Shown piece by piece: positions 1 through 41,559 of a stretch of 64,000 nucleotides of DNA. Below the pieces are notes generated by a model that saw only the letters and a list, made by a program, of their open reading frames with translations, had not been told where the DNA came from and made no database searches. Within the stretch, counting starts at the first letter, position 1. Every line of letters starts with the position of its first letter. The DNA comes from Leucoraja ocellata (taxonomy: Eukaryota), in the NCBI GenBank assembly GCA_036785375.1, contig JAWMAR010000026.1, positions 8,494,001 through 8,558,000 on the forward strand, in the 5' to 3' direction. The position numbers were made by a program, and so were the translations under genes.

Positions 1-297
1 GGCCTACACCAACCTGAAGTCGCGGTCTCCGGTAGGGGAGCACCGATTCAGGACTTACCTGGACTTTTTACCTTGTCTGCACATCTGGACGCCCGCAGCG
101 GCGGCTGCGGATGGTTGAAGTCCCGACCACGGGGGACAATGGAGGAGGACTGGCCAAATGTTGTGCCTTCCACCACAGTGATGAATGCTGTGGTGGATGT
201 TTGTGTTAAATTTTTATTGTGTTTTTGTGTGTTTTTTTTCGTTGTATCGCTGCTGGCAAAATGTGACGAATAAAACTGATTGGTTGATTGATTGATT
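1..297 (+). repeat. 3' end of an interspersed repeat with AATAAA and (GATT)n tail
   Basis: GC-rich body, T/G-rich tract, aataaa, gattggttgattgattgatt; similar to 27400-27670. Confidence 0.65.
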
Positions 298-1318
298 GCT
301 TTACATTTACTTACTATAATATAATCTTGACGTTAATCTGTGAGCCTGTCGCCCGTTTAACATCTTAAATATAAGCTTACCTAAAATGAGGAAAAAATGT
401 ACTCGGAGGTCCGCTCCAGTTCATGTAAGGTCTAATAATTAGATTATATACAGCCGGTAATGAAGACCTGTTAGTTTAATCGTTTCAGGCGGAGTATAAA
501 AATAAGGACATTTGAATGAGTGAATGATTACGCTCTCTACATTCTTTTACTTTCGTGCGGTCTAATTATTGCCTGACCTGTTCCGGATTGAGCCACGCAT
601 TTAGTTTCCATTCTTCAAAGTCCCATCAAGTAAGCGCGTAAATGTTCTGTGATTGCACATGAAGGAGACCATTCTAGCAGATGCAGAGCCACATGATTGA
701 CGCATTCTTTCCTTTCAGATCGGAAAATTCATTGCCGATTTCGTTGAACTCATCTCAACTTTAGGCGTGTTTCCTCTGCGGATTTTGCATGTAGGTACAG
801 CTTTTTTTTTTACAAAACATAGTTTCAATTTGTGTTCATGGGTAGCTCACCCCAATTACTAGTATGTTTCAGGTGACATTGAAAGCGAACCACATTAATG
901 GGTTGAAATTACATTGCCTCGATTGGGGCAAGGTTATCCTATGAAGGGCTTAATTCAGCCACACGAGATTTCAAGAACAACCCCGCAATTTAGTTATCAT
1001 TAAGACTAAATTATTTTAGGGGGGGGGGGGGGGGGGGGGGTCTTATTTGGCATCTTATTTTAATTAGATCCTCTCACGAGGCCGAAAATCGAGAAATGGT
1101 CGATGTGCGCACTGTTTGATGTCCTCAAATAAAACAGCCTTCTATTTCCTGACTCAATTTCCGCCTTCAGGCACTCAGCCAGGCCCTATATTAAAAGCAA
1201 CGCATTTCTCGACCATGTCATGGGGTGACCGATGTGATGAGGAGTCAGTGTAGAATATACCGTGACGATTATTAACCAGACCTTCATCTTTCCCAGCCAG
1301 GCGTGCTTAGTAGTCGAT

Positions 1319-1373
1319 ATGTTTCTGAAAGTGTCACCTTGGACGATATATTTCCTTGGAATTTTGAATGCGG
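1319..1373 (+). CDS. IgSF V-C1 gene, leader exon
   Basis: ATG at 1319, MFLKVSPWTIYFLGILNA + G|gtaaat; 55 nt, phase 1, hydrophobic signal-peptide character; TATATTAAAA about 130 nt upstream. Confidence 0.7.
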
Positions 1374-1666
1374 GTAAATTAGGGCTTCTATTGTTTTTTA
1401 TTTATGTGTCTTCAAATTAGGCAGATATGATAGTTGTACCTTATAATGTTATGTCGAATTATCCATAAAGTCATTGCTGTCGTATGAGTTCTGGAAAGGA
1501 GGGTAATTTACGAAACCTTTACGAGGACACAAAAAGCGGGCATAATTATTATCTGGGCTCCCATTGTAAATATTTGGGCTGAGTGCAATAAGATTTTTGC
1601 CTGCAGTGTTACATTTCCATTGCTGTATATCAATGACTAAACTGGATTTGCACCATCTATTGACAG

Positions 1667-1981
1667 CTGCTGAGAACAGGTCGGGCAAGACGATATCGAA
1701 TGTTGCAAATCAGAATACGGTGATCAGTGGCATAAATTTTACATGTCGGTGTCCCTTCCCCTTCAATGTAAATCTGACAAACCTGGAGGTTTTCTGGTGG
1801 AAAGATGGAAATAAAGGCTTCCTGAAAGAAGATAGCAGGAAAATCTTCACTATACGGGCAGGAGGCGCCTACCTGCACCTGCTGAATGTCACGGTCTCGG
1901 ACGCCGGAACATACAAATGTCTTGCAAAACAAGCGGGCCGAACGGTTGGGAAGGAAACAAGAGAGCAACTGATCGTATATG
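1667..1981 (+). CDS. IgSF V-C1 gene, V-set domain exon
   Basis: gacag|CT GCT...TAT G|gtgagc, phase 1/1, 315 nt. B-strand FTCRCPFP, C-strand VFWWKDG, E/F strands LHLLNVTVSDAGTYKC (DxGxYxC). Confidence 0.92.
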
Positions 1982-2005
1982 GTGAGCGAACGGCACTTTA
2001 GTTGC

Positions 2006-2189
2006 TAGACAAAAGTGCTGGAGAAACTCAGCGGGTGCAGCAGCGTCTATGGAGCGAAGGAAATAGGCAACGTTTCGACCTGAAACGTTGCCTATTTCCT
2101 TCGCTCCATAGATGCTGCTACACCCGCTGAGTTTCTCCAGCACTTTTGTATACCTTCGATTTTCCAGGATCTGCAGTTCCTTCTTAGGT
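2006..2189. mobile_element. Fold-back Penelope-pLTR-derived element (68-bp inverted arms) with 11-bp TSD
   Basis: Arms 2009-2076 and 2082-2149 (66/68 complementary); TSD ACTTTAGTTGC at 1995-2005 and 2190-2200. Confidence 0.9.
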
Positions 2190-2908
2190 ACTTTAGTTGC
2201 AACTCGAATTTGAATTTTGCTTCACAGAAGTCTTTAATCCAGAATACAAATGTGAATAACGTTGGAAAATTATTTGAGATTGGTTCGTTTAAAAATATAG
2301 GTCAGAGGGCATGACAGCAATTATATTTGCGTTGATGTATAATGAAGGTAGTGAGTGTAAGATGAATAAATACAACGGTTTCAATTTGACACCGAACGCC
2401 GAGGCGGGGGATCCTCCTGATGTTTTCCTAATGATAATGTTATCAACATATAATGCTGTGTATTGAAAGAGCGAGGTTTTTACTTCCACAAAATTATTGA
2501 AATATAAATTTTATTTCTTGCGCCGAATTAGAGAAACAATAAATGTTAGTCAAAGCATTCTCTGTAAGACAGTCCAAGTCTGCAACTGTTTATGACTGCT
2601 TATATTGGGGAGTTGAAGTATTCACAACAGTACTGTGCCTTTGAAGAGTTCCAACTTGAAAGTTGATTCGCGCATGTTAGCACAAGAAACAAGTATGCAA
2701 ATTTGTGCTTTTTTAAAAAATTAAATGTCAAGGGAATGCGTCAAGGGGGGGGGGGGGGGGGGGGGGGAGTCCATTGCGATGAATTACACCTTCATCTGGC
2801 TCCCGATTTAAAAATTATGATGGAATTGGAAATAGCGTTGGAAAAAATGCGATTAGATGATGTAATCGACTCTTCCCCTTTCTTTTAATTCCATTCCTCT
2901 TTACTTAG

Positions 2909-3214
2909 CTGTCCCTTCTCCTCTGAAGATTGTATCTGTTCGATCTAGAAATGCTGCGACTGATTTCCTGAAAATGCAGTGCAGAACGGCTGCCTTTTAC
3001 CCGAAAGAATTTAATCTCACCTGGCATACAAATGGTTCCGTCATCCAATCTGGATTTCGGCATGAACAAAGATCAACGGCAGACGGATTGTATGAAGTTA
3101 TCAGCTTTTTAGAGGAGAAACGGCCAGTCAAAGAAGGAACCGTTTACACGTGTAAAATTATTCACCGTTCTATGCTAACTCCAGCAACTGCCAACTACAC
3201 GGTTCCTCGTGCAG
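2909..3214 (+). CDS. IgSF V-C1 gene, C1-set domain exon
   Basis: Polypyrimidine tract + ttag|CT GTC...GCA G|gtaacg, phase 1/1, 306 nt. MQCRTAAFYPKEFNLTW...DGLYEVISFL...YTCKIIH carries the C1-set hallmarks (C-x4-FYP-x5-W, DG-x-Y, Y-x-C-x3-H). Confidence 0.93.
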
Positions 3215-3367
3215 GTAACGTGTTCCACGGATAGTATAATGGATAGTCCACTGAATAATAATATTCATAGTAAAGATAAAATGTGAGGATTTTTAAAAGA
3301 CCGAATTTTCTGTAGCAAATGTATTCACCTAGAAATTGTGCAATTTTCCTATTTTCTGCCAACGTAG

Positions 3368-3531
3368 ATGGACGCTGGACAGTCCATCCAGCCTATGTTG
3401 CTTCCCAGAAAAAGTCCATCAATACCCTTCCCGCAATCGATCGCGCACCTGTAACCTATTCCCTTTCACGTGATCTACAAGTCCACTCTGATGCCCCTAC
3501 AAACATCACACCTTCCCGAGGAATAATGTAA
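3368..3531 (+). CDS. IgSF V-C1 gene, putative terminal exon (hydrophilic tail)
   Basis: ttttcctattttctgccaacgtag|AT GGA, phase 1, open for 54 codons to TAA at 3529-3531. The four exons total 840 nt (279 aa plus stop). Confidence 0.55.
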
Positions 3532-3615
3532 AAATAATCAATTAACTCACCAAGCAGTTCCTTGGTAAAATATCAGAGAATGTGCAATGTACATGCAGAC
3601 AGTTCCCGAAGCCAG

Positions 3616-3815
3616 NNNNNNNNNNNNNNNNNNNNNNNNNNNNNNNNNNNNNNNNNNNNNNNNNNNNNNNNNNNNNNNNNNNNNNNNNNNNNNNNNNNNN
3701 NNNNNNNNNNNNNNNNNNNNNNNNNNNNNNNNNNNNNNNNNNNNNNNNNNNNNNNNNNNNNNNNNNNNNNNNNNNNNNNNNNNNNNNNNNNNNNNNNNNN
3801 NNNNNNNNNNNNNNN
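3616..3815. other. Assembly gap (200 N)
   Basis: N run. Confidence 1.
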
Positions 3816-5059
3816 CCATGAGCATTCACCAGTGAGATCAGTCACAATCTTATTGAAAGAGCAAGCCTCAAGGCTCTTCCACCTTCTCTTGATTCACAGG
3901 AACTATTTAGTTACAATTCTGTGGCAGAAAGAGTGTGTTATAAAATATAATTGATAAAACATACTGTGTGTTCTGCAGATTTAATTATATAAGATTCTAA
4001 ATGTTAGGACTTAACAATTACACCTTTCCATTCCCCTTAGCCCTTCTTAAAAATACATCAATAGACAGGCAGAAAAGCAATCTAACCAACTCGCTGTGTT
4101 TTCACAGACAAAGTCACAATTTATTACATGGAAAGTCTTCAGGTTTAATTTAAAGTCAAGGTGGATTCATTCTGCTACGAATTGTAAATGTATTAAATTT
4201 GTCAACTGTATAAGGAATGTCATTGCGGAAATTGTTGTTTAATTCAGCGGGCAAGCCTATTCTATCTTCAGGAGACCTCACCTCCTCTCCTGATTGTGGA
4301 GTTCTCACTGGAGTGCAGCTCTGGCCCTGGGTCTGCAGTGTAGACAGTGAAGGCAAAATTATTAACCCACCCTCATCATTGCAGCAACAAAAACCGAATG
4401 GTTTTGTGGGTGGGGAGTGGAGGGGAGATGAGGTGATGGTGAAATTTTAGAAACCTCAAACCTGATTCTGATCCCTCCAGCAGGGTTCAACAGAGGCAGG
4501 ACATGCGGTGGGTAATGAACCCACTCCCAGGAGCTGGGCTGTGAGATGTTGTCAGCCTCAGAGCTCACTTCCTTTGAGAGGGCTTAGGAATCATTGGCAG
4601 CTGAAGGAGGGGGTGTGGGGAATCACGTGGCTGGGGAAGGGATAATTGCCTTTCGAGCACTTTGTGAGCCAACAATGAGCCCATGGAGGTGGAATCGGAC
4701 ACCCTCTGCAGCTTGCCTGGAATACAACCCACAGTTTGGGAGCGTGACCTGTCAATAACACTACCCTCATGCAGAAGTGCCCCACACTCCTGCCATGCTG
4801 TGTCGGCAAAGCAGATTCCCTGGCTTCCCATGTGACACTGCGACCCACATCTACAGGGGCAGTCTGTCGGAGGCCGGATGCAGGAGAGGAGGGATAAAAT
4901 TACAGAAGGAAACATGTAAAGCCCATTGTTTTTGCCCCTCCTGCCCCAGAGAACTCATCTTCAAGTACCTTGATTCCAACCTATTCCCCCTCGTCCGGCC
5001 CTTTCCAAGACACTTCAACTCTTCAATAATTCCCCCCCCCCCCCCCCCCCCCACTGCTG

Positions 5060-5910
5060 TCATAGATTGATCCCTTACCACGTGCATCCCATAGTTCTGC
5101 TCTCGTATATCCCCTCGTATATCCCCAGTTGGTACAAGGATAGAGGTCTTCATCTTTCAACCCACCAGTCTCCACCTTCAACCCCTCATTCCCCGCCATT
5201 TCCGTTACCTCCAACATGATCTCACCACATCTTCCTATCCTCACTCCTTTCCACCTTCTGCAGAAACAGCTCCCTCCTCTACTCCAAGGTTCACTGATCC
5301 CTTTTCTCCTAAACCACCTCCTCCTCGGGGACTTACCCCTGCAACAGCAGGAGATGTAAAACCTGTTCCTGTACCTCCTCCCTACACGTCCATCTAGAGA
5401 CCCCAGCAGTCCTTCCAAGTAAGACAGAGTTTCACATGCACCTCCGCTAACCTCATCTACTGCATCCAGCGTTCCCGATGTGACCTCCTGTACACATGAC
5501 CGAGACCAAGCATAAATTTGGCAACTGTTTCACCTAACCAATGCCACAGCCTACCGGATATCTCGTTTGCTAACCATTTTAACTCTTCTTCCTATTCCCA
5601 TACTGACCTTACTTTCTTGGGTCTCCTCATTTGCCAATATGAGCCCACACACAAACTGGAGGAACAGCACGTCATATTCTGCTATGCACATTGAATTCTC
5701 CAATTTTATGCTAAACTAAAACGCCCCTCCCCTTTGTTCGTCCCTTTTCTTTTCAGGCCTCCTCTTCCGTGCCCCAACTGGACTCGTTCCTATTTCTCCC
5801 CTCCTCCTTCTCCACCTACATTACTTCCTCTAGCTTTAGAATTTGCAACTCTTCAATTATTTTGTCTCGCACCTTTTGTGTATTTCATTTCTGTCCTTTG
5901 TTCAACCGAG
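5060..5910 (+). mobile_element. Degenerate Penelope-like element (GIY-YIG region)
   Basis: Nucleotide similarity to the 33749-34555 copy (aacctcatctactgcatc, ggaggaacagcac, attgaattctcc); frameshifted. Confidence 0.8.
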
Positions 5911-6189
5911 GTGAGTTGTAGCAGGTAAGAGAGGAAAGACATAAAGATTGCCAATATCATAGCCACTGGCTACAGTGCAAAGATACGGATCATATCAGAG
6001 GGATCGAGGTGTGCACAAATTCTGTGGAACAGCAACAGAGTTTACAGTATAAGGGTGAGTGTTGGGACAAGATGTGGCAATGAGGTCAATTACCATGTTA
6101 AGTATAAAGTTATTCTGAATGAAGGTTAAGGTGAATGGAGAGCAAACCATCTCCAACTAGAGAGTGAGACTAGCCACCTACCCATGACA

Positions 6190-6433
6190 TTAGGATGTAA
6201 TGTTAAAATTGTACAAGGCATTGGTGAGGCCAATTCTGGAGTATGGTGTACAATTTGGGTCGCCTAATTATAGGAAGGATGTCAACAAAATAGAGAGAGT
6301 ACAGAGGAGATTTACTAGAATGTTGCCTAGGTTTCAGCAACTAAGTTACAGAGAAAGGTTGAAGAAGTTAGGTCTTTATTCTTTGGAGCGCAGAAGGTTA
6401 AGGGGGGACTTGATAGAGGTCTTTAAAATGATG
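6190..6433 (+). mobile_element. CR1-type LINE fragment
   Basis: LYKALVRPILEYGVQFGSPNYRKD...RRRLRGDLIEVFK. Confidence 0.9.
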
Positions 6434-6530
6434 AGCAACCCTCCACCACTTCTCCTGCATCCAAATACTAGGCCAATTTTGGATCCAATTTGACATTTTT
6501 TCCGGGATCTCAACCTCTCTAAAAAGTGGA

Positions 6531-6769
6531 GGAAGATACAAAATGCTGGAGTAACTCAGCGGGACAGGCAACATCTCTGAAGTGAAGGAATGGGTGACGC
6601 TTTGGTTTGAGTCCCTTCTTCAGACTTCGTCAGTCTGAAGGAGGGTCTCGACCTGAAACGTCACCCATACCTCCTCTCCAGAGATACTGCCTGCCCTGCA
6701 GAGTTACTCCAGCGTTTGTGTGTATCTTCGGTTTAAACCAGCATCTGCAGTTCCTTCCTACATGTTTCA
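6531..6769. mobile_element. Fold-back Penelope-pLTR-derived element with 15-bp TSD
   Basis: Two inverted arms of about 95 bp, each containing a degenerate hammerhead; TSD TCTCTAAAAAGTGGA at 6516-6530 and 6770-6784. Confidence 0.88.
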
Positions 6770-7627
6770 TCTCTAAAAAGTGGATCAGGTTCCCATGTGG
6801 AAAAACATCAATCCCATATCTTTCAATACCTCTTCAGAAAATTAAATCATACTGGTCAGACATGATCTTCTCCAGACAAATCGTGTTTACATTCAGTCAC
6901 TACCCAATAGAATATTTATGCAATAACCTCTCCACTTCTAAGGGATTCACCATCACTATCCACTAATGCCCCAGTCTGCATAATATATTATCACCCCACT
7001 CCAAATGATTTACACTCGGTGAGTATCTTGTACTCTGCTCTGGTCACTGTTCCTGCTCCTCAGCCCCAGTGTGAACGTACCCAGGTCAGTCTTCAGTTTC
7101 TTGTCTCTGGTCGTCTGCCTGCTGCTCGTTGTGATGGCCGCAGTGTGCCTGTACCAGTTCCCCACCACTGCCTGGCCTGCCGTGCCATCATAGTACCTGC
7201 GACAGATTACAGCCGATTACTCACTCATCAACCCAGGCCCACGCACGGTGTCAGTTCTATTGGGGATCCAGAGAACAACAGCACTGAATCCCGGAATGTC
7301 CAGCCTGGAACATCTTGTGTCACATGCTGGAAGGAAGAGATGCCAAGCGACGAGACCTTTCTCTGTCAGAGCTACTGAACAGTAATGCAGCATACTGGCG
7401 CATTTAGCAGAGCCGCTATTCAGTAGCACCAGAGACACAACTTCCATCGCAATTTCTGATGCTGTCTGTGTGGAGTTTGCACGTTTCATTTTGACCACCT
7501 TGGGATTCCGCCAAAGGCTCAGTCAGTTTTCCTCCCATCGCTATTTGGCTTGGAGCGATAATTGGCATTGTAAATTGCCGCCCAAATGGGTGGGTGAGTG
7601 GCAGAATTTGGGGGCAGTTGATAGAAA

Positions 7628-7968
7628 TAATTGATTGATTGGTTTAAAGATACAGCACGGAAACAGGCCCTTCAATCCGGTGAGTTCATGCCGACCATCG
7701 CTCACCTCTTCACACTGGTTCTATGTTATTCCGCATTTGCATTCCCTCCCTACATACTACGGGCAATTTACAGGGGCCAAATTAACCGACAAACCTGCAT
7801 GTCTTTGGTGTGTGGGAGGAAAGCAGAGTACCCAGAAGAAACTCACACTCGGTCACAGGAAGAGCATGCAAAATCTACTCAGGCAGCACCTAAGGACAGG
7901 ATTAAACCAGGTGTTCTGCTGTGGTGAAACAGCAGCACTACCAGCTGGGCCACTGTGCCACCCTGTGC
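7628..7968 (-). mobile_element. tRNA-derived SINE nested in an older plus-strand SINE (about 7400-8095)
   Basis: Full minus-strand copy splits a plus-strand copy whose tail resumes at about 7990. Confidence 0.8.
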
Positions 7969-8293
7969 CATTTTATTCTCCAATGTTTGGAGAATAAAAT
8001 GGGATCGGTGTAGGTTTGGTGTAAACAGGTGTTTGATGGTCAGCATGGACTCAGTGGGCTGAAGGGCCTACTTCAGTGCTGCTGCTCTATGACTGTTGCT
8101 GAATAGTGTTACAGAAGATCTGCGATTGGGAAGGGAGTACAAAGCAGAGCTATTGACAATTATTCCAAAGAGACCAGATATTAATGATAGCCTGCCCACA
8201 TCAGTGGACCCATCTGGTGGCTGGTCATGACAGTGGGAGTCCACACAGGCTGGGAGCAGCATCGCCCTCTGTCAGCACAGTGGGCTTTGAACT

Positions 8294-8498
8294 TTACAAG
8301 GGGGTCATCAGCCTGAATCGCAGGCTCGTCCTTGACTGAACAAATCCCTCCCACAGGGAGCCAGGTGGACAGTCAGCGTGAACTCTCCTATCCAGCAATG
8401 AACCGTTGTGCTGAGGAGATTCATCCATGTCCTGCCCCTTGCTGGATGAACGCCAGGGCAACAGAGTGACAGGAAGAGGCGACAGCTCCCACCTGGCT
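8294..8498 (-). CDS. Candidate NECAB2 exon 7 or alternative terminal exon
   Basis: Acceptor ttactgctgcag at 8499. A phase-2 join to exon 6 gives an open frame (G)ARWELSPLPVTLLPWRSSSKGQDMDESPQHNG...MTPL*. Only a weak donor (GTTCAT at 8403); homology is not convincing. Confidence 0.3.
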
Positions 8499-8689
8499 CT
8501 GCAGCAGTAAGAGATGTCTTCATAAATATACATTTCATTAAATCAACTACAGTACCTAATAAATTGAGTGAAATTCCGCTCCAAGCCATCCAGATATTGC
8601 TAGGCAACAAATCCAACCAGCTCGCCTTAGAAGAGGAACTGAGCGTGCGTATGTGTGTATGTGCAGTGTTGCTCCCATCTTAAGACTTG

Positions 8690-9745
8690 CCACGTCATGA
8701 CTGACCCACTATTACCCCGAGTCCCTGTGAACGAATATTACCCCTGCCTCTGTGTCTCACTTTTATCCCAATCCTGCGATTTCCTCAGTCCCTCTGACCC
8801 ACTATTAACCCGTCTCTGTGTCTCACTATTATCCCAGTCAGGTGATCCACAGTTATCCCTCTTCCTCTGACATATTGTTACCCCTGTCTCTCGTGACCCA
8901 CTAGTACCCCAATCTCTGCAACTCACCGTTACCCCAGTCCCTGTGACCCACTGTGACCCGAGTCCCCGTGACCTAGTCTTACCCCAGGCCATGTGACACC
9001 TTATTGATCGAGCAACGGTGACCCACTGTTACTCCAATCCCCGTGATTCGTTATTACCCCTGTTGTCCCAGTCTCTGTGACTCACTATTAACCCCAGTTC
9101 CCATGACCACTATTACCCCAGTCCCATGATCCATTACAGCCATGGATCGTGTAACCCATTATTACAACAGTCCCTGTGATTTTCTATCACCCCACTTTCT
9201 GTGACTCACCCATGTACCAATCCCAGTGACTAACTATTACCCCATCCAAGTGACTCATTATGTCCCCCCCATCCCTCTGTCTCAATATTGCTCAGTCCCT
9301 TTGACTCACTATTACCCCAATCCCCATGACCCAACCTACCCCAGCCGCATGATCCATTATTGCCCGGGACCCTCTGACTCACTGTTACGCTAGTCCCTGT
9401 ACCACACTATTGCCCCAGTTTCTGTGACTCACTAACACACCAATCCCAGCAACTATTATCCCATCCATGTGCCTCAATATTACCCCAACCCACTGACTCT
9501 CTATTACACCATTCTCTGTGATCCGCTATTACCCCAGTATCCGTGATCCACCATTACTCTAGCCCCTGTGACCCACTATAACCCCTGTCTCCATGGCCAC
9601 CGTGTTACCCCAGTACCTTGACTCTTTATTGCTTCATCCCTGCAGCCCGCTATTTCCCCTGTCCCCATGACTCACTCTTACCCCATTCCCTATAACCCAT
9701 TATTACCCCACATCCTCTGGCTCACAGTTCCCCCACTCCTCATGT
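8690..9745. repeat. Degenerate minisatellite, unit about 26 bp
   Basis: Consensus about TGACCCACTATTACCCCAGTCCCTG, roughly 40 diverged copies. Confidence 0.9.
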
Positions 9746-10499
9746 CCTTGTTGTGAGTTGAGCCATCAACAATATCCTCAGACTCATTAATAATACCTAG
9801 GAAGCTGAGTCAGTCAGAGCTGGAGTGCGCCCCTCTGCCTCTCAGCATTGCTCTATCTCTGAACTGAATCACAGTTGAGGTGTAAGTCACACTGACTGCA
9901 TTCTCTGCCCTGACATTCTTCCAACGCTCCACAGGGCAGCTCAGCGGTCTGGCTGAGAGGGGAGAGGAAGAGCCTGGCTAAGATACAAGATCACAAAACC
10001 CGTCCTCTACAGTTCAGTGCGACCTCCCATCCAGCTGCAGAATCCCTCTACACCTCTCCTCTTTGTGCCCCTTTTTAACTGTCTGTCAAACATTTGCATG
10101 TTGCCTGCATCCACTACCTCCCCAGGCAGCTCGTTCCATCTCATCACCACCCTCTTGTGAAAAACATACTCCTCAGATTTCTATTGCATTGGTCTCTGCT
10201 CAGGGGGACGGGTGTGTGCCAGCAGAAGAGGTATTGTAAGTGGCAGGCTTGGAACATCTGCCCTAATTATCATAAGCAGATAGAAGTTTGTGGGATATCC
10301 AATCTGCTCTGTCTAAAGCAGTGAGACAAATCCCAGTGCAGGCCTTTATCGTTGCTCTAGCTCACTGAGCCTTCAAGGTGTTATCACTGTGGGAGTGTGA
10401 TATCCTGCAGGACAATACGCAGTTGGTTTTAGCCAGTGCCTTGCTCAGACTGAGGAGGCAAGGGAATGGAGCAACACATTGACCAGGAGAATTACCCAC

Positions 10500-10636
10500 C
10501 CTGTCTGAGTGTTCTGATCCTCTATGGCATCAACTGCACTTTCCACAGAAGTCAGCAATGACTGGATCTGGCTGGCTGTCTCCTTCAACAGGAAACGGGT
10601 CACAAACTGGTCCAACTTCGTCCCACTCTCGTAAAC
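10500..10636 (-). CDS. NECAB2: NECAB2 exon 6 (137 nt, NECAB homology/coiled-coil region)
   Basis: tcag|GTT TAC...ACA GG|gtgggt = [45 protein letters not shown](G); matches the recalled NECAB2 segment [33 protein letters not shown]. Confidence 0.93.
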
Positions 10637-12181
10637 CTGAGAAGCAGAGGGGCCAAACCCAATCAAAGCACATTAAAAACCAGGCAGAAAGAACTGACAT
10701 TACATTCAGAATCCTTTCTACTATTAAGCATGTATTAATTAATTCTCCATCATATTTATGGCTCTCAAATTATAATAACTCTAATATGGGGGATTTCAAC
10801 AAATATTTTCTAAAAATTCTGATATTTCCGTCTGAAGCCATCTCATTTCACTGCTTTATTGAACATCCTGCAAAGAGCTCCAGTGTATTGGTGAATTGTG
10901 ACTTATAGCTGTTAATTCTGTATCAGATACGCAAATTGACATCTGTGCTGAGAGCATTTGAATATTAATAACATTGAATAAAACTACTCATTAGTGTCCT
11001 TGCAGTGACTTTAGGTTGGCAGGTTCATAATTCCAACGTTCAGACCTCGAATACCATTTGCTCCATGTTCATTTAGTTCCTGAAATAGATTTTTAACTCA
11101 ACCTTCACTTGAACTCAATAGTCATTAATATATCCCAATGATTTTCTTTCTATATTATTGTAGGCAATCAATGAAAACAATGAGAAGGGATGATGTGAAT
11201 TCGATTATTATTACTGGAGTAAACAGGAAGAATTGGTCTCTCAGAATTCTATATCGAGGGAGGAAATGGAAAGGAGTTATGTTCTACACATTGAAAGTGA
11301 TGGAGGCAATTTGATCTGACATTGGGATGTAATGTAATGAGAGGGAATGTGAGGTAGAAAGTTGCTTTGGAGGATTTAATGCAACTGTTGTTGAGACAGG
11401 TATTGTTAAACTCCTCCCTTCTGCCCCATTGAACAAGCCTGAGAAGTTCATTGACTTCAAGAGAGCAGTTTGTCACCTTGTCCCTGTCCTTTGGTCCGAG
11501 ATGATAAACAACCCAGCCCCAGGGCAGGATAGGCACTCCAACCACACCTTGTCCTTGCTTGCTCCCCTCAGCCTGGCTATCATTTCTTTACCCTTGCTGA
11601 TCCCTGTGTTATCTGATATCCTTAAGTAAAGCAATTATTAGCCACCCTGTTTTGGTGAACTAATGCAGACCACAAAAATCCTTTTGCCCTCCAAATCATG
11701 TGACATGCTAGCACCTCCCATAATCTTTCATCTTTCCTGCAGCCTCCTTGATCCTGTATCCCATTACTGCTACAATAGTCATTCTTGTCATCTGCAACAT
11801 CCTGTGCTATCCCAACCCCTGAGCTTTGGAAGGTCTTAAGGTAGACTTTTTTTTTAATGCGAACATCAATGACTATTGTTTTCTAAAGTTATTATATATT
11901 TTTCTCAATGTGATGATGTTTTAACTTTTCATGTAAAATCTTCATTTCGACATCTGACTGAACTAAGCCAAGTGTTATAGCTTAATTGCAATTTGTTTCA
12001 TTGCTAATTATCACATGAGAGGCACACACTCAAGGAGAGATGTGTTACTTAACATTTTCAACAAGATGGAATTACCCTGGGGATTTTAGCGATTTAACAT
12101 GGGATGTCATTAGTTGATTCAGAATGTCAGGGAATGAAATGTGAGAGGGAATCAGCTTGTGACTAGAAGTAAGTCTGACAC

Positions 12182-12818
12182 ATCTGAAAGTAAGCATACA
12201 GGTACAGCAGGCAGTAAAGAAAGCTAATGGCATGTTGACCTTCATTGCAAGAGGATTTGTGTTTCGGAACAAGGAGGTCCTACTGCAGTTGTACAGAGCC
12301 TGATGAGACTGCACCTGGAGTATTGTGTGCAATGTTGGTCTCCTAATTTGAGGAAGGACATTATTGCTATTGAGGGAGTGCAGCATAGGTTCACCAGGTT
12401 AACTCCTGGGATGGCGGGACTGATATATGATGAAAGAATAGGTCGACTGGGCTTGTATTCACTGGAATTTAGGATGACAGGCTAGATGCAGGAAAATGTT
12501 CCCGATGTTGGGGGAGTTCAGGACCAGGGGTCACAGTTTAAATTAAGGGGTAGGCTGTTTAGATGAGGATAAACTTTTTCACCCAGCGAGTTGTGAATCT
12601 GTGGTATTCTCTGCCACAGAAGGCAATGCAGGCCAATTCACTGGACGTTTTCAAGAGAGAGTTAGATTTAGCTCTTAGGACTAAAGGAATCAAAGGATAT
12701 TGGGTAAAAAACAAAACTGAATACTGATTTTAGATGATCAGCCATGGTCATATTGAAAGGCGGTGCTGGCTCGAAGGGCCGAATGGCCTCCTCCTGCACC
12801 TATTTTTCTACATTTCTA
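12182..12818 (+). mobile_element. CR1-type LINE 3' fragment
   Basis: RLHLEYCVQCWSPNLRKD...; same family as 19270-20041. Confidence 0.9.
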
Positions 12819-13914
12819 AAGGAGAAGTAAAGAATTAAATAAATAAAAAAATAGATGTAGCTAGCTGAAAGGAATTTTGGCTTGCATTTCTTCATTCAAG
12901 TCCACAGTTCTTAGGATGTCCCTGATTATTTTACACCACCAGAGAAAACTTTACTGTGTAGTCACTGTTATAAAGTTGCAGATAGTGCAGGCAAATTCTT
13001 ACATAGCCATATGATTAATGATAGTTTGGTCTGGGTTTTGTTTTGGTAATGTTTTCTGAATCACACATGTCCATCAGAATACTGGGGAAGACTGCACTGT
13101 TCTACTTCTGAAACAGCAGTGCAATCTTTTACATCCAGCAGAGAAGTACATGAGGCGTGGACCTGACATCCAGCAGTGGGGCTCTCCTTCGATGCTTCAA
13201 AATGATGTCAGTTTGAACTATAAGATAGGCCCCCCAGAATGGGACACGCTCTGCTGTCAAAGGTTGAGCCAAGGCTAAAGAAAATGAGACACCAGAGATG
13301 GAGAATGTACTGCAACCTGTCAAAACAGCCCAGTCATCCCATAGATTCTAATCCCCAAGAGAATTGGGCACAAAGCGTGGATAGGTCAAATGTTCTCCTA
13401 ACTCTGTATCTCTGCATTTAACAAGATCTTAGTTTACTGCTCACTTTCCTGCCTGATCTAAAAGTACTTTGGTTCCTGTTGCGTCCATCAGTTCCAGGCT
13501 TTAACCTATTCGATGTCTGAGAATGCCTGATGATTGATGGTAGAGAATTCCAAAGGTTCACATCCTTCTGCCAAACATTCTTCAATAACAGTTCAAAATG
13601 GCTGTCCTTTACCCTGACATTTTGATGTTCATTCTGGACTCTTCGGTCTGAGGTAATAGCCTCTTCCAGTCTGTCCATCCTTCTCAAAAGCTAGCATCTC
13701 AAGGAGATTCCTCTCATCTTTCCAAACTACAAATGGTGCCGACTAATTCTCCTCAATTCAGACACAGAGAATAATCCAGGACTTATCTAAACCACTCTAT
13801 GTATAACTGCAGTAAAACTCAATTGCGTTAATGCTCCTCACCTCTTCCAACAGTCTTGTATTAAAACTATACAGGGCATTGGTTTAAATTGAGAGGGTTA
13901 AAACTAAACTTAAA

Positions 13915-14238
13915 ACTGTTCCCGATGTTGGGGAAGTCTAGAACAAGTGGTCACAGTTTAAAGATAAGGGGGAAATCTTTTAGGACCGAGATGAGAAAAA
14001 CATTTTTCACACAGAGAGTGGTGAATCTCTGGAATTCTCTGCCACAGAAGGTAGTTGAGGCCAGTTCATTGGCTATATTTAAGAGGGAGTTAGATGTGGC
14101 CCTTGGGGGTATGGAGAGAAGGCAGGTACAGGATACTGAGTTGGATGATCAGCCATGATCATATTGAATGGCGGTGCAGGCTCGAAGGGCCGAATGGCCA
14201 ACTCCTGCACCTATTTTCTATGTTTCTATGTTTCTATA
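13915..14238 (+). mobile_element. CR1-type LINE 3' end
   Basis: FPMLGKSRT...FFTQRVVNLWNSLPQKVVEASSL, near-identical to the 19270 copy; ctatgtttctatgtttctat tail. Confidence 0.92.
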
Positions 14239-15204
14239 CTTACTGGTTCCTAAATGCATGTTAAATTTCTGTTTTTCTGTTTTCTGTTTTTGACCAGTCC
14301 TCTCGACAAAAATCATTGTTATTTTTTACCCATTTAAATAGGATATTTCTCTACTCTTCACATTGAATACATACCCTTCTTTCACCATCATACACTTAAA
14401 CTGTCCTCCATTTCATGGAAATATCATCAACAATTTATTCAGGTTCAACCTATACTGATGCTGCAGCCAAGAAAGTATACCGACACCTCTACTGCCACAG
14501 AAGGATAGTGGTGGTGTAAGCAATTTTTGGATAGTCACAGGGATATGCAGGGAATGGAGTGGTATGGATCACATGTAGTCTGATAAGAGTTTGTCTTAGC
14601 TCCATGTTCAGCATAAATATTGTGGGCCAAAGGGCCTGTACCTGTGCTATACTTTTCTAAGTTTGAAAAACTTTATCAAATAGTTTTAACAGCTTTTATA
14701 AAATCTAAATTTTTCAGCATGGATCCAAAAAAAATGGTCAACATATTTTCATAAGGCAAAAAATTACCTTAAAATAGAGAACAGCATTTAAGCACAGAAA
14801 CAGGTATTTTTTCTACCATGCCCATGCCGATCACAATGCCAATCTAAACTAATGCTATCTACCTACACATGATTCACATCCATCAATTTCCTGCTTGTTC
14901 ATGTGTCTCTCAATATTTATTAACCATTCTCTCACCTTCCCTGGCAGTGTGTTCCAGGAACCTACCATGCTTTGTGTGAAAAACGTGCTTTGTAAATCTC
15001 TTTTAAACTTTCCCACCCTCTCAATTTAAACCAATACCCTCTGGCATTTGACATTTCCACCCTGGGATTATCTACCATATCTATGCTGTTCATAATTGTA
15101 TTTACTTCTTTCACGTCTTCCCTCAGTCACCAATGCTCCAGACTAAACAATCAAAGTTTGTCCAACCTCTGCTTAATGCTGATACCCTATGGTGTGATAT
15201 CAGG

Positions 15205-16435
15205 TGAGAGCGGAGGTTGGGGAGGGAGAGGAGAGGGAGAGAGGAAGGTGAAAAAGGGAGAGGGGATGGAGAAAGGGAAATGGAGGAGAGGGGTGGTTGA
15301 GAGGAAGAGGGAAGAAGTATATGAGAGAGGGAGGGAGACAAAGGGAGAGAGGACGATAGGAGAAAGAGTGGGAGATAAGGTGGGAGAGTTTGAGTAGGGA
15401 GGTGAAGCAAGAAGAGTGATTGTTTGTGGGAGAGGGAGTGAAATCTGTGAGGGAGCAATGGTGAGCCTTAGGGTGTTGGGAAAAGAGAATTAATGAGGGA
15501 AAGGGGGGAGGGATAAAGTGAAACTGAGAGAGTCGGAGGAGGAGAGAGAGAGAGAGAGCGAGCAAGAGAGAGAAAAAAAGAAAGAACATTAAATCTGTGA
15601 GATGTGGGTCAGAGCGATTGAAAAGACCTGGAAGGAAAAGGAGCAACATGAAAAGCCCAGCAGGGGATGTTTGTTGAGAGAAAAACTGTGTCAGTATGAC
15701 AGTTGTATAACTTCACAGCAGGATTGGCCATTTTTGATACACTGGGTTCAGAGAGGGGGGCTGGTTTGGGGGGAGATAGTTCTTGACATGCTGAGGGAGT
15801 GGAAGGAAAGTTGAGGAAGAGGAGAGTTTTATGAAGGAGGGGGAGCGGCTTTGAGAGCAGGAGAAATGTTGAGGAGATGAGAGGTGGTGAGGGAAGTTGT
15901 AGCGAAAGAGGAAGAGCTATGGGAGAGATGCTGAGAGAGTTGAAGTGTTGAAGGCAGGGAGAGCCAATGAAGAGCCAGGGGGTGGGGTTGAGTGCGGGAG
16001 ATGTTGAGGTAGGAACAGGTGTTGAAGGAGTGGAGGGTGTGTTGCGGGAGGAGAAAAATGTTGGGGGAGGGGAGAACTGTTGAGGGAGAGGGAGGGGTAT
16101 GTAGGGGGCAGGGGAGATGTTGTGGGAGTGGAAAGATTGTTGTAGGAGGGGAGAGGTGTTGCGCGAGTGGTGGGACGTTGAGAGAGGGGAAAGCTGTTGA
16201 GGGCGCAGAGATGATGAGGTAATGGAATGGGGTTTGAAGGAGGATGTTAAGCAAGAGGAAGGATTTGTGTGGGGGTGGGGGGAGCATTGTGAGGTGGAGG
16301 GGTGTTGAGTGAGTGGAACGGGTGTTGAGAGAGGGGGAGAGATATTGAAAGGGAGTGGGAGAGATATTGAAGGAGTGGACGGGGTGTTTGAGGACGGGGA
16401 GATCTGTTATGGGAATGAGGGGATGGGAGGGGTGT
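15205..16435. repeat. Purine-rich low-complexity tract with recurring GTTGAG/GTTGAA motif
   Basis: G/A-dominated plus strand. Confidence 0.85.
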
Positions 16436-17039
16436 GAAATTGTTCCATTCACTATTAATCTAGAAGGCTGCAGCTTGCAAGGTGAGGTCTTGTTTCTTCA
16501 GCTTGATGAGTGCTTTGTTGGAACAGATCAGGTTACAAATGAGGTGGCTGGAATGCTAAATCTAAAGAGGGGCAATTTTGTGCATCGTTTTCCAGAGACA
16601 GTGTTCTCACATAAGTCAGGACAGCGAGATGGACAGATTGAGGTCAGCTCATCAGCAATTTGGTGTCAGGACACTAACTCATCCTTATCACTTTTGTGAA
16701 TAATGAGCTGGTTCTAATGAGCTGACTTCCTCTCTAGGATGTTATTAACACATTATTCAAAAGCCGAGTGTGAGTGAGAGAGACAAAACTGAAACAATAA
16801 CCATTTGGATTTTATTATCCGAAAAAAAATATTACCACTGTGCCCAAATTGATGGCTGTCCTTGAGTTAAACCTTGAGGGTAAAGATTGACCAAAATGAA
16901 GCGGTACAAAAAATGTATTAAGATATATGTGTTGTGTAGTATTGTAATTGACCGTACTTCTAATAAAAATACAATTAAAAAAAAAAAAAAAAAAAGATTG
17001 ACCAAAGAAATACTACATAACATGTCCGATGCGACCCAC

Positions 17040-18125
17040 ATATCTCTTCCATATTCAACATCCCCTCAATACCAAATTCTCCCTCAACAGTTCTGCCACT
17101 CACTCAATCCTTTGCAACTACCTCAATATCTACCCTCTCCCTAAACACCACATCCCCTCCCTCAATACCACTCCTCTCATTAACCCCACCCACCTCCATC
17201 AACACCATCTCCGCTCCCTCAGCACTCCTTCCAACTCTTCAACAGCACCACTGGCCTTCAACAGCACCACTCTCCCTCATTACACCTCCACTCTCTAACC
17301 CCCCCCCCCCCCCCCCCCCCCCAAGTACCTCCCCCCCAAGCACTTCACCTCCCCCCATCCAGGACCTCTCCACCTCTTTCATCACATGTCCCCTCTTCAC
17401 ATCACACTTCTCCTCCCTCATTCCTCATCACACTTCCTCATCCCTCATTGTGCACCCCTCATCCTCAAGCTGCACGCCCTCTCTCACCACCCCTTCCACT
17501 CCATCAGCAACTAGACCCTTCTCACAACATTTTTCAACGTTCATTACGCCCCTTACTCTCGCTCAAAAGCTATTTCCACACTGTCCTCCCCACACATAAC
17601 ACACCTCCCTTGCCCGCAATACCCAAATCTGCGTTGCACCCTCTATATTAGAACCTCTTTCCCCTCAATGACACTCCCACCCTCTCAACACTTCTCCACC
17701 CTCACACCTCTTACCTTCTATTGGTAGCTTTGACCCTCACTGTCTCCCCCTTGCCGACAGATGTCCCCTCCCTCAATACACTTACCATCCCTCAACACAC
17801 CTTAACCTCCCCAACACACCAACATATCCACTAACACAACTTCCCCACCTCTCCCTCTCCATGCCTCCTCCTCACTTAACACACCTATTCCCCCCTCACC
17901 ACATTGTCCTCTATCAACCCATCTCCCCATCCCTCACATCTCCCCGCCCTCATCACATCTCCCTACCTCATTTCCCGCCTCCTACAACACATCTGCTCCC
18001 TCATCAAATCTCCTCCTCCGTCAACGAACCTACTTTTCCCTCAGCTCACCCTCTCCCTCCTTCATCACACCTCCCCCACCTTCAATGCACAACCCCTTCC
18101 CTCAGCACCCAATCCCTCCCTCCCT
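17040..18125. repeat. Pyrimidine-rich low-complexity tract with recurring CTCAAC/CTCAAT motif
   Basis: C/T-dominated plus strand. Confidence 0.85.
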
Positions 18126-18433
18126 CATATGATGATAAAGTGAAGTTTCATGCATTAATTAATTCATTCATTCATTCATTCATTAATTCATTCATTCAGG
18201 GAGAGAGAGGAATAGAGAAAGAGACCCACAACTGGAGGAGCCACACCTGTATAAATCTCACACCCAGACAACAACAGAGATGAACCGTTCTTGCTTCCCA
18301 CCACCCCCCCCCCCCCCCGCCCCCTCCCCCCAACCCACTAACTCTCCCCTCATGAAAGGTATGAGAGAAGAGCTAAATCCCTCACCACCCACATATTTCA
18401 GCAGCTAAGGTGGTGATGTCCTGCCAGGCTCAC

Positions 18434-18531
18434 CTTCTTGGTGTAGTCCATAGCTTTCAGAATCGATAGGTTTAATGTCTCCAAGCAGGCCAGGACATCT
18501 TCGTAATCACCCATGTGGGAGGCAAAGTAAT
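18434..18531 (-). CDS. NECAB2: NECAB2 exon 5 (98 nt)
   Basis: cgcag|AT TAC...AAG AAG|gtgagc = (D)[32 protein letters not shown]. Confidence 0.96.
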
Positions 18532-18628
18532 CTGCGGGGATGGAACACACAGCATGGGTAATAAAGTTCACAGCATGTTCCCATCTCCAGGTTCACATTG
18601 AAAACAGCTTCAATCCATAACCTATGTT

Positions 18629-18936
18629 TGGCACGGTGGTGCAGTGAGTAGTACTGCTACCTCATGGTGCCAGAATCCTAGGTTTGATCCTGACCACTGG
18701 TGCTGTCTGTGCGGAGTTTGGCAGTTAGGTTTCATCCAGGTTCTCCAGTTTCCTCCCACATCTCAAACATGTGTGAGTTGGTAGGGTAATTGGTCACTAT
18801 AAATTACCCAGTGTAGGTGAATGCATAGAACCTGAAGTTTAAAAAATGGGATTAATGTACGACTAGTGCAGATGGGTTTAGGGTCAGTGTGGACTCTGTG
18901 GGCCAAAGGGGCCTGTTTCCTTGCTGGATCTTTCTG
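18629..18936 (+). mobile_element. tRNA-derived SINE (HE1-like)
   Basis: ggcacggtggtgcagtgagtag...ggtttgatcc...ggggcctgtttcc. Confidence 0.85.
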
Positions 18937-19118
18937 TGACCACCACCACTATCATCAACTGCACCCTGTGAGATTCTTCACCAAAACAGAGGAAACAGGA
19001 GCAGGATTTGACACCTCCGTCCTTTGTTTCTGCTGTGCCATTGCTCATGGCCAATCTTGCACCTCAGCGTTTTCCTGCATTATCTCCATATCATGCTGGT
19101 TTAAACCTTCCCAAGTAG

Positions 19119-20200
19119 GGCGACACAGGGGCACCCTGTGAATTGAGAGTTGAGTTGCTGCCTTACAACGCCAGAGACCCGGGTTCGATCCTGACTATGG
19201 GTATTGTCTGGAAGGAGTATGCACATTCTCCCTGTGACCCCATGGGTTTTCTCTGGGTGCATTGGTTTCATAGAAACATAGAAAATAGGTGCAGGAGTAG
19301 GCCATTCGGCCCTTCGAGCCTGATCACCTTCGAGCCTGATCACATTCAATGTGATCATGGCTGATCATCCAATCAGTATCCTGTACCTGCCTTCTCTCCA
19401 TACCCCCTGATCTCTTCAGCCACAAGGGCCACATCTAACTCCCTCTTAAATATAGCCAATGAACTGGCCTCAACTACCTTCTGTGGCAGAGAATTCCAGA
19501 GATTCACCACTCTCTGTGTGAAAAATGTTTTTCTCATCTCGGTCCTAAAAGATTTCCCCCTTATCCTTAAACTGTGACCCCTTGTTCTGGACTTCCCCAA
19601 CATTGGGAACAATCTTCCTGCATCTAGCTTGTCCAACCCCTTAAGAATTTTGTAAGTTTCTATAAGATCCCCCCTCAATCTTCTAAATTCTAGCGAGTAC
19701 AAGCCGAGTCTATCCAGTCTTTCTTCATATGAAAGTCCTGACATCCCAGGAATCAGTCTGGTGAACCGTCTCTGTACTCCCTCTATGGCAAGAATGTCTT
19801 TCCTCAGATTAGGAGACCAAAACTGTACGCAATACTCCAGGTGTGGTCTCGCCAAGACCCGTACAACTGCAGTAGAACCTCCCTGCTCCTATACTCAAAT
19901 CCTTTTGCTATGAATACTAACATACCATTCGCTTTCTTCACTGCCTGCTGCACCTGCAAGCCTACTTTCAATGACTGGTGTACCATGACACCCAGGTCTC
20001 GTTGCATCTCCCCTTTTCCTAATCGGCCACCATTCAGATAATGGTTTCCTCCCACATTCAAAGATGTGCAGGTTTGTAGGCTAATTGACTTCTGTAAATT
20101 ACCCCTAAGGTGTAGGATAGAACTAGTGTTCTGGGTGATTGTTGGTTGGTTGACTCGATGGGCCGAAGGGCCTGGTTCTATGCTGTATCTCCAAACTCTG
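19119..20200 (+). mobile_element. tRNA-derived SINE split by a CR1 insertion
   Basis: Head 19119-19269, tail 20042-20200; TSD AAGTAG at 19113-19118 and 20201-20206. Confidence 0.85.
19270..20041 (-). mobile_element. Young CR1-type LINE 3' fragment (ORF2 C-terminus plus tail)
   Basis: RDLGVMVHQSLK...RPHLEYCVQFWSP...LYSLEFRRLRGDLIETYK...FFTQRVVNLWNSLP; (TTCTATGT)n tail; TSD TGGTTTC at 19263-19269 and 20042-20048. Confidence 0.95.
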
Positions 20201-21130
20201 AAGTAGCACGAACAAATCTCACAGCAAGGATATTGGTGCGTCTCCAGTTCAGGTGCAACCCGTTCCTCTTGTGGTGGTCACTTCTGCCCCAGAAGAGATC
20301 CCAAAGTTCCGAAAATCAGAATCCCTGCCCCCTGCACCAACTCCCCAGCCACGCATTAATCTGCCCTTTCCTTCTATTGCTACCCTCAGTAGTAAGTGGC
20401 GGCGGTTGTAATCCAGACATATCCACGTTCGAGGTCCTGCATTTTAATCTTTTGCTTAACCCGATATTCACCCCACTGGACCTCAAACCTTTTCCGACCT
20501 ACTGTATGTAATTTGTGCCGACGTGCATAACAACCTCTGGCTACTCACCCACCCCCTTGAGAATATTCTGCAGCCACACGGAGGCATCCAGGGCCCTGGC
20601 ACCAGGGAGGCAGCAGACCATCCTGAAGTCTCGTTTGTTACCACAGAATCTCCCGTCTGTCCCCCTATCGAGTCTCCTACCTGTATCGCTCTGCCTGACC
20701 TCACCCTACGCCACTCTGCCTCAGTGCCAGGCCCGGTGTCACTATCCAGGCTGCTGCTGCTGCTCACCCCTGAACACTCATCCCCCTCAAGATTATGCAA
20801 AGTGGTATATCTGTTTTGCAGGGGAATGGCCACTGTGGATTCCAGAACTATTTTCCTACTCCCTTTCCTGCTGGTCACCCATCTATTCTCTATCTACACC
20901 TTTGGTCTGACCACCTCTCAATAGCACCTAACTATGACTTCCTCTCTCGTCCGGATGAGCCTGAGGTCGTCCAGTTGCAGCTCCAGTTCCCTATCACGTT
21001 CTTTGAGGAACTGCACCTGCACGCACCTCCTGCAGATGCAGTCCTTAAGGACACTGCCCATCTTCTTGAGTTCCCACATCCCATAGGTCGAGCACTCCAC
21101 TGCACTACTTTCCATTCCACCTTACTAGGG
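20201..21130 (-). mobile_element. CR1 ORF1 remnant (Zn-finger/leucine zipper plus SGNH esterase-like region)
   Basis: VECSTYGMWE...CICRRCVQ...ELELQLDDLR; IPLQNRY; RAIQVGDS; stops and frameshifts. Confidence 0.8.
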
Positions 21131-22192
21131 CCAAGTTGCACACTGAAACAAACAGAACGTGACAGACCAAACCTCATCCTGCCCTTGTAGAAGCCTCCTC
21201 ACGCAGAAACCTCCTGAGCCACGGCCTCAATACCCACTCTTACTCTGCCCACTCTCACTATGGCCACTTCACCTCCGCTTACTTTCCTTTTATTGACTAA
21301 TTGGGCAACCTGTGAAACTTGACATTTCAGCTTGCTCCGCGCTCCCAGGGAAATCCCGACAGCTGAGACCACCAACACTGAGACTTGATATTTTACCTTG
21401 CTCCTCTTCTCCAGAGAAATCCTGACAGCTTCCCCACTGATTTCAATTCAGAGAAAGACTACCAAGGACTGAAGTAGCTATCTATTAATCAAGAATGTTT
21501 TAAGTGTTTATTTATATCTTTTCTCTTGTATTTTGTAACATTTATGACTCATAGACCTTTGCACAATATCTGTAGTTGTTGGAGATCAATCATTCCAAAA
21601 CATTCCCTGCCCTCCTGCCCCACTTCTTCCATTCACTCCTCCACACCCTGTCCATACCCTGGGCTCCCACATTTCTTTTCCCTTCCTGTTCACTTCTAAA
21701 CACCATTTCTCCTTCAAGTTCCATATTTCACTCACCATCTCCATTCCTTAACAGGTTCCACCATTTTCACCCCTTTTGTCTTCTCCACGCAAAACCTCCA
21801 GCTTTAATTATTATCTCTGCCCTCCTCTCTCCTGCCCAACTCATCTGGCAATCAACCCTTCCTCAGCTGGATCCACCTATCACTAGCTCCTGTTTTACCC
21901 CTTCCCCTCTATTGGATAGTTATATGGACGGGAAAGGAACGGAGGGTTATGGTCTGAGTGCAGGTAGATGGGACTAGGGGAGAATAAGCGTTCGGCACGG
22001 CCTAGAAGGGCCGAGATGGCCTGTTTCCGTGCTGTAATTGTTATATGGTTATATGGTCTGAAGAAGAGTCCCTACCCAAAACTGTCTGTCCATTTCCTCC
22101 CACAAACACTGCCTGACCGGCTGAGTTTGTTCAGAGACAGAAGTAACTCAGCAGGCCAGGGAGCATCTCTGGAGAACATGGATAGATAATAT

Positions 22193-22366
22193 CAGCGGGT
22201 GCAGCAGCATCTATGGAGCAAAGGAAATAGGCAACGTTTCGGGGAAGGGTTTTGGCCCGAAACGTTACCTATTTCCTTTGCTCCATAGATGCTGCTGCAC
22301 CCGCTGAGCTTCTCCAGCATTTTTGTGTACCTTCGATTTTCCAGCATCTGCAGTTCCTTCTTAAAC
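22193..22366. mobile_element. Fold-back Penelope-derived element nested in an older related element (about 22140-22562)
   Basis: Inverted arms; 17-bp TSD ACATGGATAGATAATAT at 22176-22192 and 22367-22383. Confidence 0.85.
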
Positions 22367-23169: not shown

Positions 23170-23470
23170 GTGGCACAGCTAGTAGACCACTGCCTCACAA
23201 CTACAGACACCCGAGTTCAATCCTGACTGTGTGCTGTCTGTGTGTGAAGTTTGGATATTCTCCTAAAGATTGCAATGGTTTCCTCCAGTTTCCCCCAACA
23301 CCCAAACTCACGTGGGTCAGTAGGTTAACTGGCCATGTGTGTGAGTCATAGAATATGGGGGGGGGGGGGGGGTTGTTGAGACGGTGGGTGAATAAAATGG
23401 GATTAGTGTAGGATTGGTGCAAATGAGTGGGTGATGTTTGTCAGGGACTCGATAGACTGAAGGGGCCTCC
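23170..23470 (+). mobile_element. Degenerate tRNA-derived SINE
   Basis: gagttcaatcctgact B-box; same internal domain as the other copies. Confidence 0.75.
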
Positions 23471-41545: not shown

Positions 41546-41559
41546 ATGGATGTAGTGAG

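Follow-up and report, generated by a model that had tools for sequence, protein, structure and literature searches.

A V-C1 immunoglobulin gene of Leucoraja ocellata with a secreted appearance is probably a copy of a clustered inhibitory receptor gene cut at an assembly gap

Introduction

The PRARP/VJC1 genes, attributed to Fu et al. 2019 and Ohta et al. 2019, are said to combine a germline-joined VJ-C1 ectodomain with a transmembrane (TM) segment and inhibitory motifs. They are given as MHC-linked (PMC10751288). Elasmobranch UrIg and UrIg2 are described as MHC- or Ig/TCR-linked single genes in which a non-rearranging single-exon VJ is followed by C1 domains, numbering three in UrIg, which is secreted, and up to 9-11 in UrIg2 (PMC12227049). 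The NITR genes possess a germline VJ-type exon and form a large cluster with inhibitory, activating and secreted members, their membrane-proximal I domain carrying six Cys (bioRxiv 10.1101/2021.06.11.448072). SIRP-alpha/beta/gamma are clustered paired receptors with an ectodomain of one V and two C1 domains, the inhibitory form having four tyrosine motifs in its cytoplasmic part and other forms a charged TM segment and a short tail; SIRP-alpha is an inhibitory receptor acting with SHP phosphatases, which is the basis for the analogy drawn below (PMC3716694, PMC12975943).

The window analyzed here is a 64,000-nt stretch of L. ocellata contig JAWMAR010000026.1 (hereafter C26), positions 8,494,001 to 8,558,000. 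Near its left end lies a germline-joined V-C1 gene with four proposed exons at 1319-1373, 1667-1981, 2909-3214 and 3368-3531, considered in the original prediction as a gene for a secreted protein, possibly a soluble decoy. Here, we propose with a probability of roughly 80% that a germline V-C1 inhibitory receptor gene is represented in the window by its first three exons, and that its secreted appearance arises because a haplotype copy of this gene is broken off at an assembly gap before the TM and tail exons.

Results

Joining of all four stretches yields an open reading frame of 279 aa interrupted by phase-1 GT-AG introns, so that the predicted coordinates, splice sites, phases, frame and leader were all reproduced. 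The leader (signal peptide) exon (1319..1373, plus strand) ends with a phase-1 donor and shares 72% identity over 18 aa with the N-terminal ends of two ray homologues, P0001 and P0002. The C1 exon (2909..3214, plus strand), also with a phase-1 donor, scores 36.9 bits against Pfam C1-set (cut-off 21, E 4.6e-9), in line with its predicted identity, and matches six proteins of sharks and rays with 56-67% identity. The exon between them (1667..1981, plus strand) encodes, as judged by Pfam, alignment and a structure model, a compact V/I-type Ig domain with 55 residues between the cysteines, its own G strand and degenerate J-like glycines. Its Pfam V-set score (22.6 bits) is below the cut-off of 26, while I-set (24.9) is just above 23.7; thus the predicted Ig domain with G strand stands, its attribution to the V-set remaining under threshold. 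The predicted model of this domain has pLDDT of 94.7, and fold search with it placed I-set domains and skate VNAR 8ht3 in a tie at Z 11-12 (for the latter Z 11.1, rmsd 2.0, 85 aligned); the fold-search matches listed do not include SIRP, B7-H6 or NKp30, and these searches did not discriminate.

Neither a canonical RSS heptamer nor a nonamer accompanies the gene, the exact-match scan of 1-3615 giving a single heptamer at 174, and the split V and J segments of rearranging Ig/TCR genes are not found here, the G strand being inside the V exon with a GT donor directly after it. This agrees with the expected germline-joined, non-rearranging V-C1 immune gene of cartilaginous fish, for which no well-described gene emerged as a clear one-to-one counterpart. 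The J-like motif is indeed degenerate: Arg occupies a G-strand position that is Gly in at least 90% of the 20 family V domains aligned. Since Gly is also retained in the sawfish homologue, the degeneration is likely, from the alignment, to be a recent change rather than an ancient trait. The protein contains eight sequons and five Cys, confirming the extra Cys and the several sequons noticed earlier. A dimer bond through the extra Cys was considered and appears unlikely, this residue lying on a predicted strand two positions ahead of the Cys of strand B and being replaced by Phe or Leu in sharks, so that it likely points into the core.

An intact counterpart of the gene, termed copy B, was located on the minus strand at C26:7969427-7963237. 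Its model, built from DNA only, has seven GT-AG exons in the order leader, V, C1, TM, short linker and two tail exons, with a single open frame of 354 aa. The TM exon of 102 nt starts 984 bases beyond the point at which the window copy breaks and is followed by a 44-nt linker exon. The tail bears four tyrosine motifs (PMYAHL, PVYAKI, LAYASL and VIYSGV) spaced by 23, 15 and 23 residues, as in a horn shark homologue; two of the four conform to the strict ITIM consensus, and the remaining pair carries Pro at -2. The sequence proposed as the fourth exon in the window (3368..3531, plus strand; a 53-codon open frame matching no Pfam family) is located in copy B inside intron 3, 1 kb before the TM exon, with 4 mismatches in 164 nt, and is most likely a part of this intron rather than an exon. 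At the DNA level, then, copy B shows a C1 exon of this kind continuing to a TM exon elsewhere, the outcome named in the original prediction, for RNA, as refuting it, and both the lack of a TM segment and the secreted reading find no support: the gene most likely codes for an ITIM-type membrane receptor and has lost its 3′ exons to the assembly break.

The break itself is a run of 200 N (3616..3815) beginning 84 bases past the proposed stop codon. Its flanks are not collinear: the left one continues in copy B at C26:7967364 (minus strand), while the right one matches C26:8141206 (plus strand). That this run is a scaffold gap rather than a withheld stretch is inferred, the letters beneath N not being visible. 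The window matches copy B over bases 1 to 3615 and nothing further, and this segment (1..3615) is the end of an N-bounded block of 129,862 bp, an inverted near-copy of C26:7967364-8095177. Another 200-N run, at C26:8367554, was revealed in the 858 kb of C26 surveyed around the window, and between these two runs 123,710 of the 129,862 bases (95%) align in inverted orientation, with 98.4% identity, to sequence 400 kb upstream. The identity varies from 95 to 99.5% along the block (average difference 1.6%); the 60 terminal bases at each end are identical to the primary copy and match to the last base, and the five C1 genes of the block are mirrored by five in the primary copy. Beyond the gap, 3816..64000 is a direct near-copy of C26 from 8141206 on, with 97-98% identity in the long aligned pieces. 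This direct duplicate, at 97-99% identity, extends over at least 140 kb (C26:8141206-8281856 versus 8497816-8638000) and includes exons of NECAB2, one of them within an open frame at 10448..10672 (minus strand; 84-93% identity to elasmobranch NECAB2), and of HYDIN, for which an exon of the region occurs exactly twice, at 8261127 and 8614647. Since the DNA after the gap thus duplicates NECAB2 and HYDIN exons as well, the window copy is most likely, by sequence comparison, an uncollapsed second haplotype bounded by scaffold gaps, and the direct duplicate is likely a second false duplication. A third 200-N run was found on contig C934. The 198-N run of the window has collinear flanks, unlike the 200-N run; a 165-N run is also present.

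The coding parts of the window gene and copy B, about 620 bases, differ by 15 substitutions and one codon, somewhat above the block average of 1.6%, a divergence also compatible with a real recent duplicate. With 11 non-synonymous against 3 synonymous codons, positive selection between the two cannot be told from neutrality by eye. Two public contigs, one of 1239 nt from run X2 without differences and one of 549 nt from run X1 with a single difference, span the break point into the intron of copy B, and both, when aligned to the window, end at 3615. Among the matches listed, seven of eight X2 pieces match copy B exactly, and run X6 gave repeat pieces only; contigs of runs X1, X2, X4 and X5 span introns and behave as DNA. 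Such bridging contigs attest the contiguity of copy B, not the sequence following the window copy, and X2 is perhaps not independent of the assembly. A TM exon hidden beneath the 200 N is ruled out by the distance of 984 bases at which that of copy B is situated. No family-type TM exon was found in 3816..64000, and tblastn with homologue tails gave no significant TM or tail match in the window among the matches listed.

The gene is not a solitary one but a member of a large tandem family. Genome search with the C1 exon returned 54 matches among 150 scored candidates (with the V exon, 52), distributed as 26 on C26, 14 on C1270, 11 on C578, one on C105 and one weak match each on C424 and C934. 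The latter two belong to other kinds of gene, leaving 52 V-C1 matches, a figure not equal to the number of genes, many being probably haplotype duplicates. A separate gene with several tandem C1-like exons at C424:567782-574806 (L137-L138) falls outside the family in the tree. Further clusters are situated on C1270, at C578:0.91-1.11 Mb and at C26:11.96-12.15 Mb; the sets on C1270 and C578 are nearly identical, and the two contigs may represent alternative haplotypes. A broken V fragment at C26:7914060-7913809 (minus strand), upstream of paralog A (see below), and a broken C1 duplicate at C26:12021957 (minus strand) are birth-and-death debris of the clusters. By our reading of the scan, a family-type TM exon lies downstream of 23 of the 26 intact C1 exons of C26, and TM follows C1 in each of the 11 nearest named homologues, which are ray and shark proteins. 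Profile search gave 83 proteins at E <=1e-30, 67 of them with both domains; TM was detected in 52 of these 67, and an ITIM-consensus motif in 24 of those 52. A strict pattern flagged a TM arginine in 11 family-like proteins (two also with the motif), which is an undercount, several visible by eye having been missed. The named members belong to skates, rays, sharks and Callorhinchus. Family members neighboring the window gene are almost the same as Amblyraja and Leucoraja proteins. A single V and a single C1 are found in the window gene, copy B and the C26 paralogs, P0013 alone possessing a second, near-identical C1.

Judging by sequence motifs, the cluster holds both inhibitory (ITIM) and activating-type (charged TM) members, and they are likely paired on/off receptors. 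Two of the C26 matches are 93-96% identical to the window gene: copy B (7969427, minus strand) and paralog A (7910705, minus strand). Paralog A, at C26:7910705-7904396 (minus strand, L034-L035), has an ectodomain 94-96% like that of the window gene and shares the 44-nt linker exon with copy B; in its TM segment Gly is changed to Arg, the TM exon ends in a stop codon, and the tail (ITIM) exons are decayed. Horn shark P0011 shows the same TM change at the same position relative to its ITIM-bearing 87% paralog P0010 as skate A relative to B. Because the TM of paralog A is closer to that of B (69%) than to that of P0011 (41%), the inhibitory-to-activating switch likely arose twice, as far as these comparisons go. 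Alternatively, paralog A could be a decaying copy.

On C26 the family is accompanied by SEPT7-like, NECAB2 and HYDIN genes. Just left of the cluster there are a flavin oxidoreductase exon (L060:6726-7730, plus strand), which we take to be OSGIN1-like, and a septin-7-like gene (L096:7168-8029, plus strand). NECAB2 apparently shares a contig with family members in eight other elasmobranchs, and this linkage indicates a conserved chromosome. SEP-domain matches occur on C14, C667 and C904 and none on C26, these being contigs and not chromosomes. In human, NECAB2 and HYDIN are on 16q and SIRP is on 20p13, the regions being ancient paralogs. A Pfam survey of 100 ORFs from the flanks and 70 from the window, selected with a crude score out of 4485 and 659 candidates, respectively, identified few genes. 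There was no MHC gene among the neighbors identified.

The C1 tree comprised 88 rows after removal of exact duplicates and of two damaged domains and was rooted at midpoint; its SIRP-annotated domains are from coelacanth and lungfish, and it contains neither Ig nor TCR nor any SIRP of mammals. A clade with 97/97 support unites the V-C1 family, inclusive of Callorhinchus and of a V-C1-TM-ITIM protein from coelacanth, and the SIRP-annotated C1 domains of coelacanth and lungfish form a separate 99/88 clade. The sister relation of the two is weak (55/59) and dependent on the midpoint root. The window gene belongs to a subfamily common to rays and sharks (C1 90/92; V 98); deep branches of the V tree, obtained by a quick fallback method, are without resolution. 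Family C1 domains stand apart in the tree from amphibian V-C1 proteins judged B7-H6-like from their appearance. Latimeria P0178/P0121 (XP_005987622), a V-C1-TM protein with two ITIM-type motifs, groups with the family and not with the coelacanth three-domain SIRP-like protein; it is probably a coelacanth member, with a long branch that makes its placement unsure. Turtle proteins P0109 and P0157, with tandem compact V domains and J-like ends, score 23-46 bits on the family V profile and are possible distant relatives.

Discussion

Compared with the systems described so far, the family resembles UrIg and UrIg2 in the non-rearranging single-exon VJ followed by C1 and in its occurrence in elasmobranchs; unlike these genes, characterized by VJ with at least three C1 domains and by MHC or Ig/TCR linkage (PMC12227049), it has a single C1 and is a multigene set with ITIM and TM-Arg members adjoining NECAB2 and HYDIN. 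With NITR it shares the germline VJ-type exon and the large cluster of differently acting forms, but its second domain is a two-Cys C1, at variance with the six-Cys I domain. PRARP/VJC1 genes were compared by description, and the MHC linkage given for them is to be set against the lack of any MHC gene among the family neighbors identified. B7-H6 (NCR3LG1) has the same V-C1-TM layout as copy B, and some homologues are auto-named NCR3LG1-like; its profile score is nevertheless below that of SIRP, and the ITIM tails of the family point to a receptor rather than a ligand. Database labels are inconsistent, ranging from SIRP-alpha-like and B7-H6-like to tapasin-like and Ig light chain-like, with many members auto-named "PTPNS1-like". 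No description of the family was found in the literature searched, which lay mostly outside subscription journals and excluded supplements possibly listing such genes.

Granting that the assembly break is real, C1 might yet also be spliced to 3368 as an alternative last exon, producing a soluble decoy beside the membrane form. We regard this as improbable. The acceptor at 3368 is a pyrimidine-rich YAG in correct phase, with a frame that stays open in the window copy and in B alike; 15 of the 67 family-like database proteins are without TM, as in the predicted models XP_067906048.1 and XP_038663089.1, some being RefSeq models, and for the C26 genes with C1 at 7873414 and 12117814 the downstream scan found no TM exon. 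Soluble splice forms of SIRP (PMC12975943) and secreted forms of NITR (bioRxiv 2021.06.11.448072) are also mentioned. However, certain TM-less models are clearly mis-annotated (P0045 has ITIMs yet no TM), and an intact gene devoid of a TM exon, as a secreted decoy implies, is not what copy B represents. The supposed exon is missing from paralog A in spite of an ectodomain 94-96% identical, and a comparison of its peptide with 178 stored proteins gave nothing below E 0.9; chance frames, by the same rule, reach at least 50 codons in one of 15 other C1 introns and 39-43 codons in six, and the sole AATAAA/ATTAAA found downstream in copy B is about 1 kb past the stop, adjoining the TM acceptor. Very improbable, in our estimate, is a true inverted segmental duplication leaving the window copy as a genuinely truncated paralog, either pseudogene or soluble fragment. 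Local duplication does occur in paired-receptor clusters: A and B are true paralogs of recent origin, and this cluster contains several further near-identical pairs. The variable identity of the block (95 to 99.5%) would suit it. Against it, both ends of the block coincide to the base with 200-N runs, the following stretch independently duplicates DNA with HYDIN and NECAB2, and contigs of runs X1, X2, X4 and X5 carry exclusively the non-window letter at many listed positions.

For the membrane receptor family to which the broken haplotype copy is assigned, the relation to SIRP is to be weighed separately. That it represents the true cartilaginous-fish SIRP family, with one C1 instead of two, seems rather unlikely to us, even if human SIRP-alpha is the best V-C1 PDB match to the family profile (62.1 bits, only titin being higher), followed by SIRP-gamma (51.6), UrIg2 (48.1) and B7-H6 (43.7); these scores are sums over domains, and per-domain PDB searches were dominated by multi-domain chains. 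Clustering of inhibitory and activating members, as read from motifs, and the four tyrosine motifs in the tail of copy B are SIRP-like, and a coelacanth SIRP-like query disclosed no clearly better candidate in the genome (best E 7e-8, 24% identity, family C1 exons reaching 24-38%). On the other hand, the family clade excludes SIRP-annotated domains in the C1 tree, its V domain is compact and much shorter than SIRP V, its genes count dozens, and its SEPT7-like, NECAB2 and HYDIN neighbors appear to differ from those of human SIRP. The family is not filed as SIRP because one V and one C1 are found in place of the three-domain layout. At less than even odds, it may be an undescribed SIRP sister family as old as jawed vertebrates, keeping the two-domain VJ-C1 layout suggested for the precursor of antigen receptors. 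The joint proposal of such an old sister family, a repeated activating switch by TM Gly-to-Arg change with tail loss, and a soluble decoy made through the fourth exon is quite improbable.

By analogy with SIRP-alpha, a ligand bound to the V domain would bring about phosphorylation of the tail tyrosines, and these would recruit SHP-1/SHP-2 and damp leukocyte activation; paralogs with a TM arginine and without a tail would act as activating partners, signaling via an ITAM adaptor. The gene of copy B type is on these grounds likely an inhibitory leukocyte receptor, and the family as a whole is likely SIRP-like in function, with inhibitory/activating pairs.

Gene counts in the assembly are probably inflated by haplotype duplicates. 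A soluble VJ-C1 decoy, if true, would be the second secreted non-rearranging antigen-receptor-like molecule besides UrIg, and this most likely falls together with the artefact. What emerges in its place is likely, from sequence features, a large family of germline V-C1 paired receptors in cartilaginous fish (sharks, rays and chimaera), with a probable member in coelacanth, which bears on the origin of SIRP-type checkpoint receptors and on the set of intact VJ-C1 genes considered in discussions of how antibodies and T-cell receptors arose.
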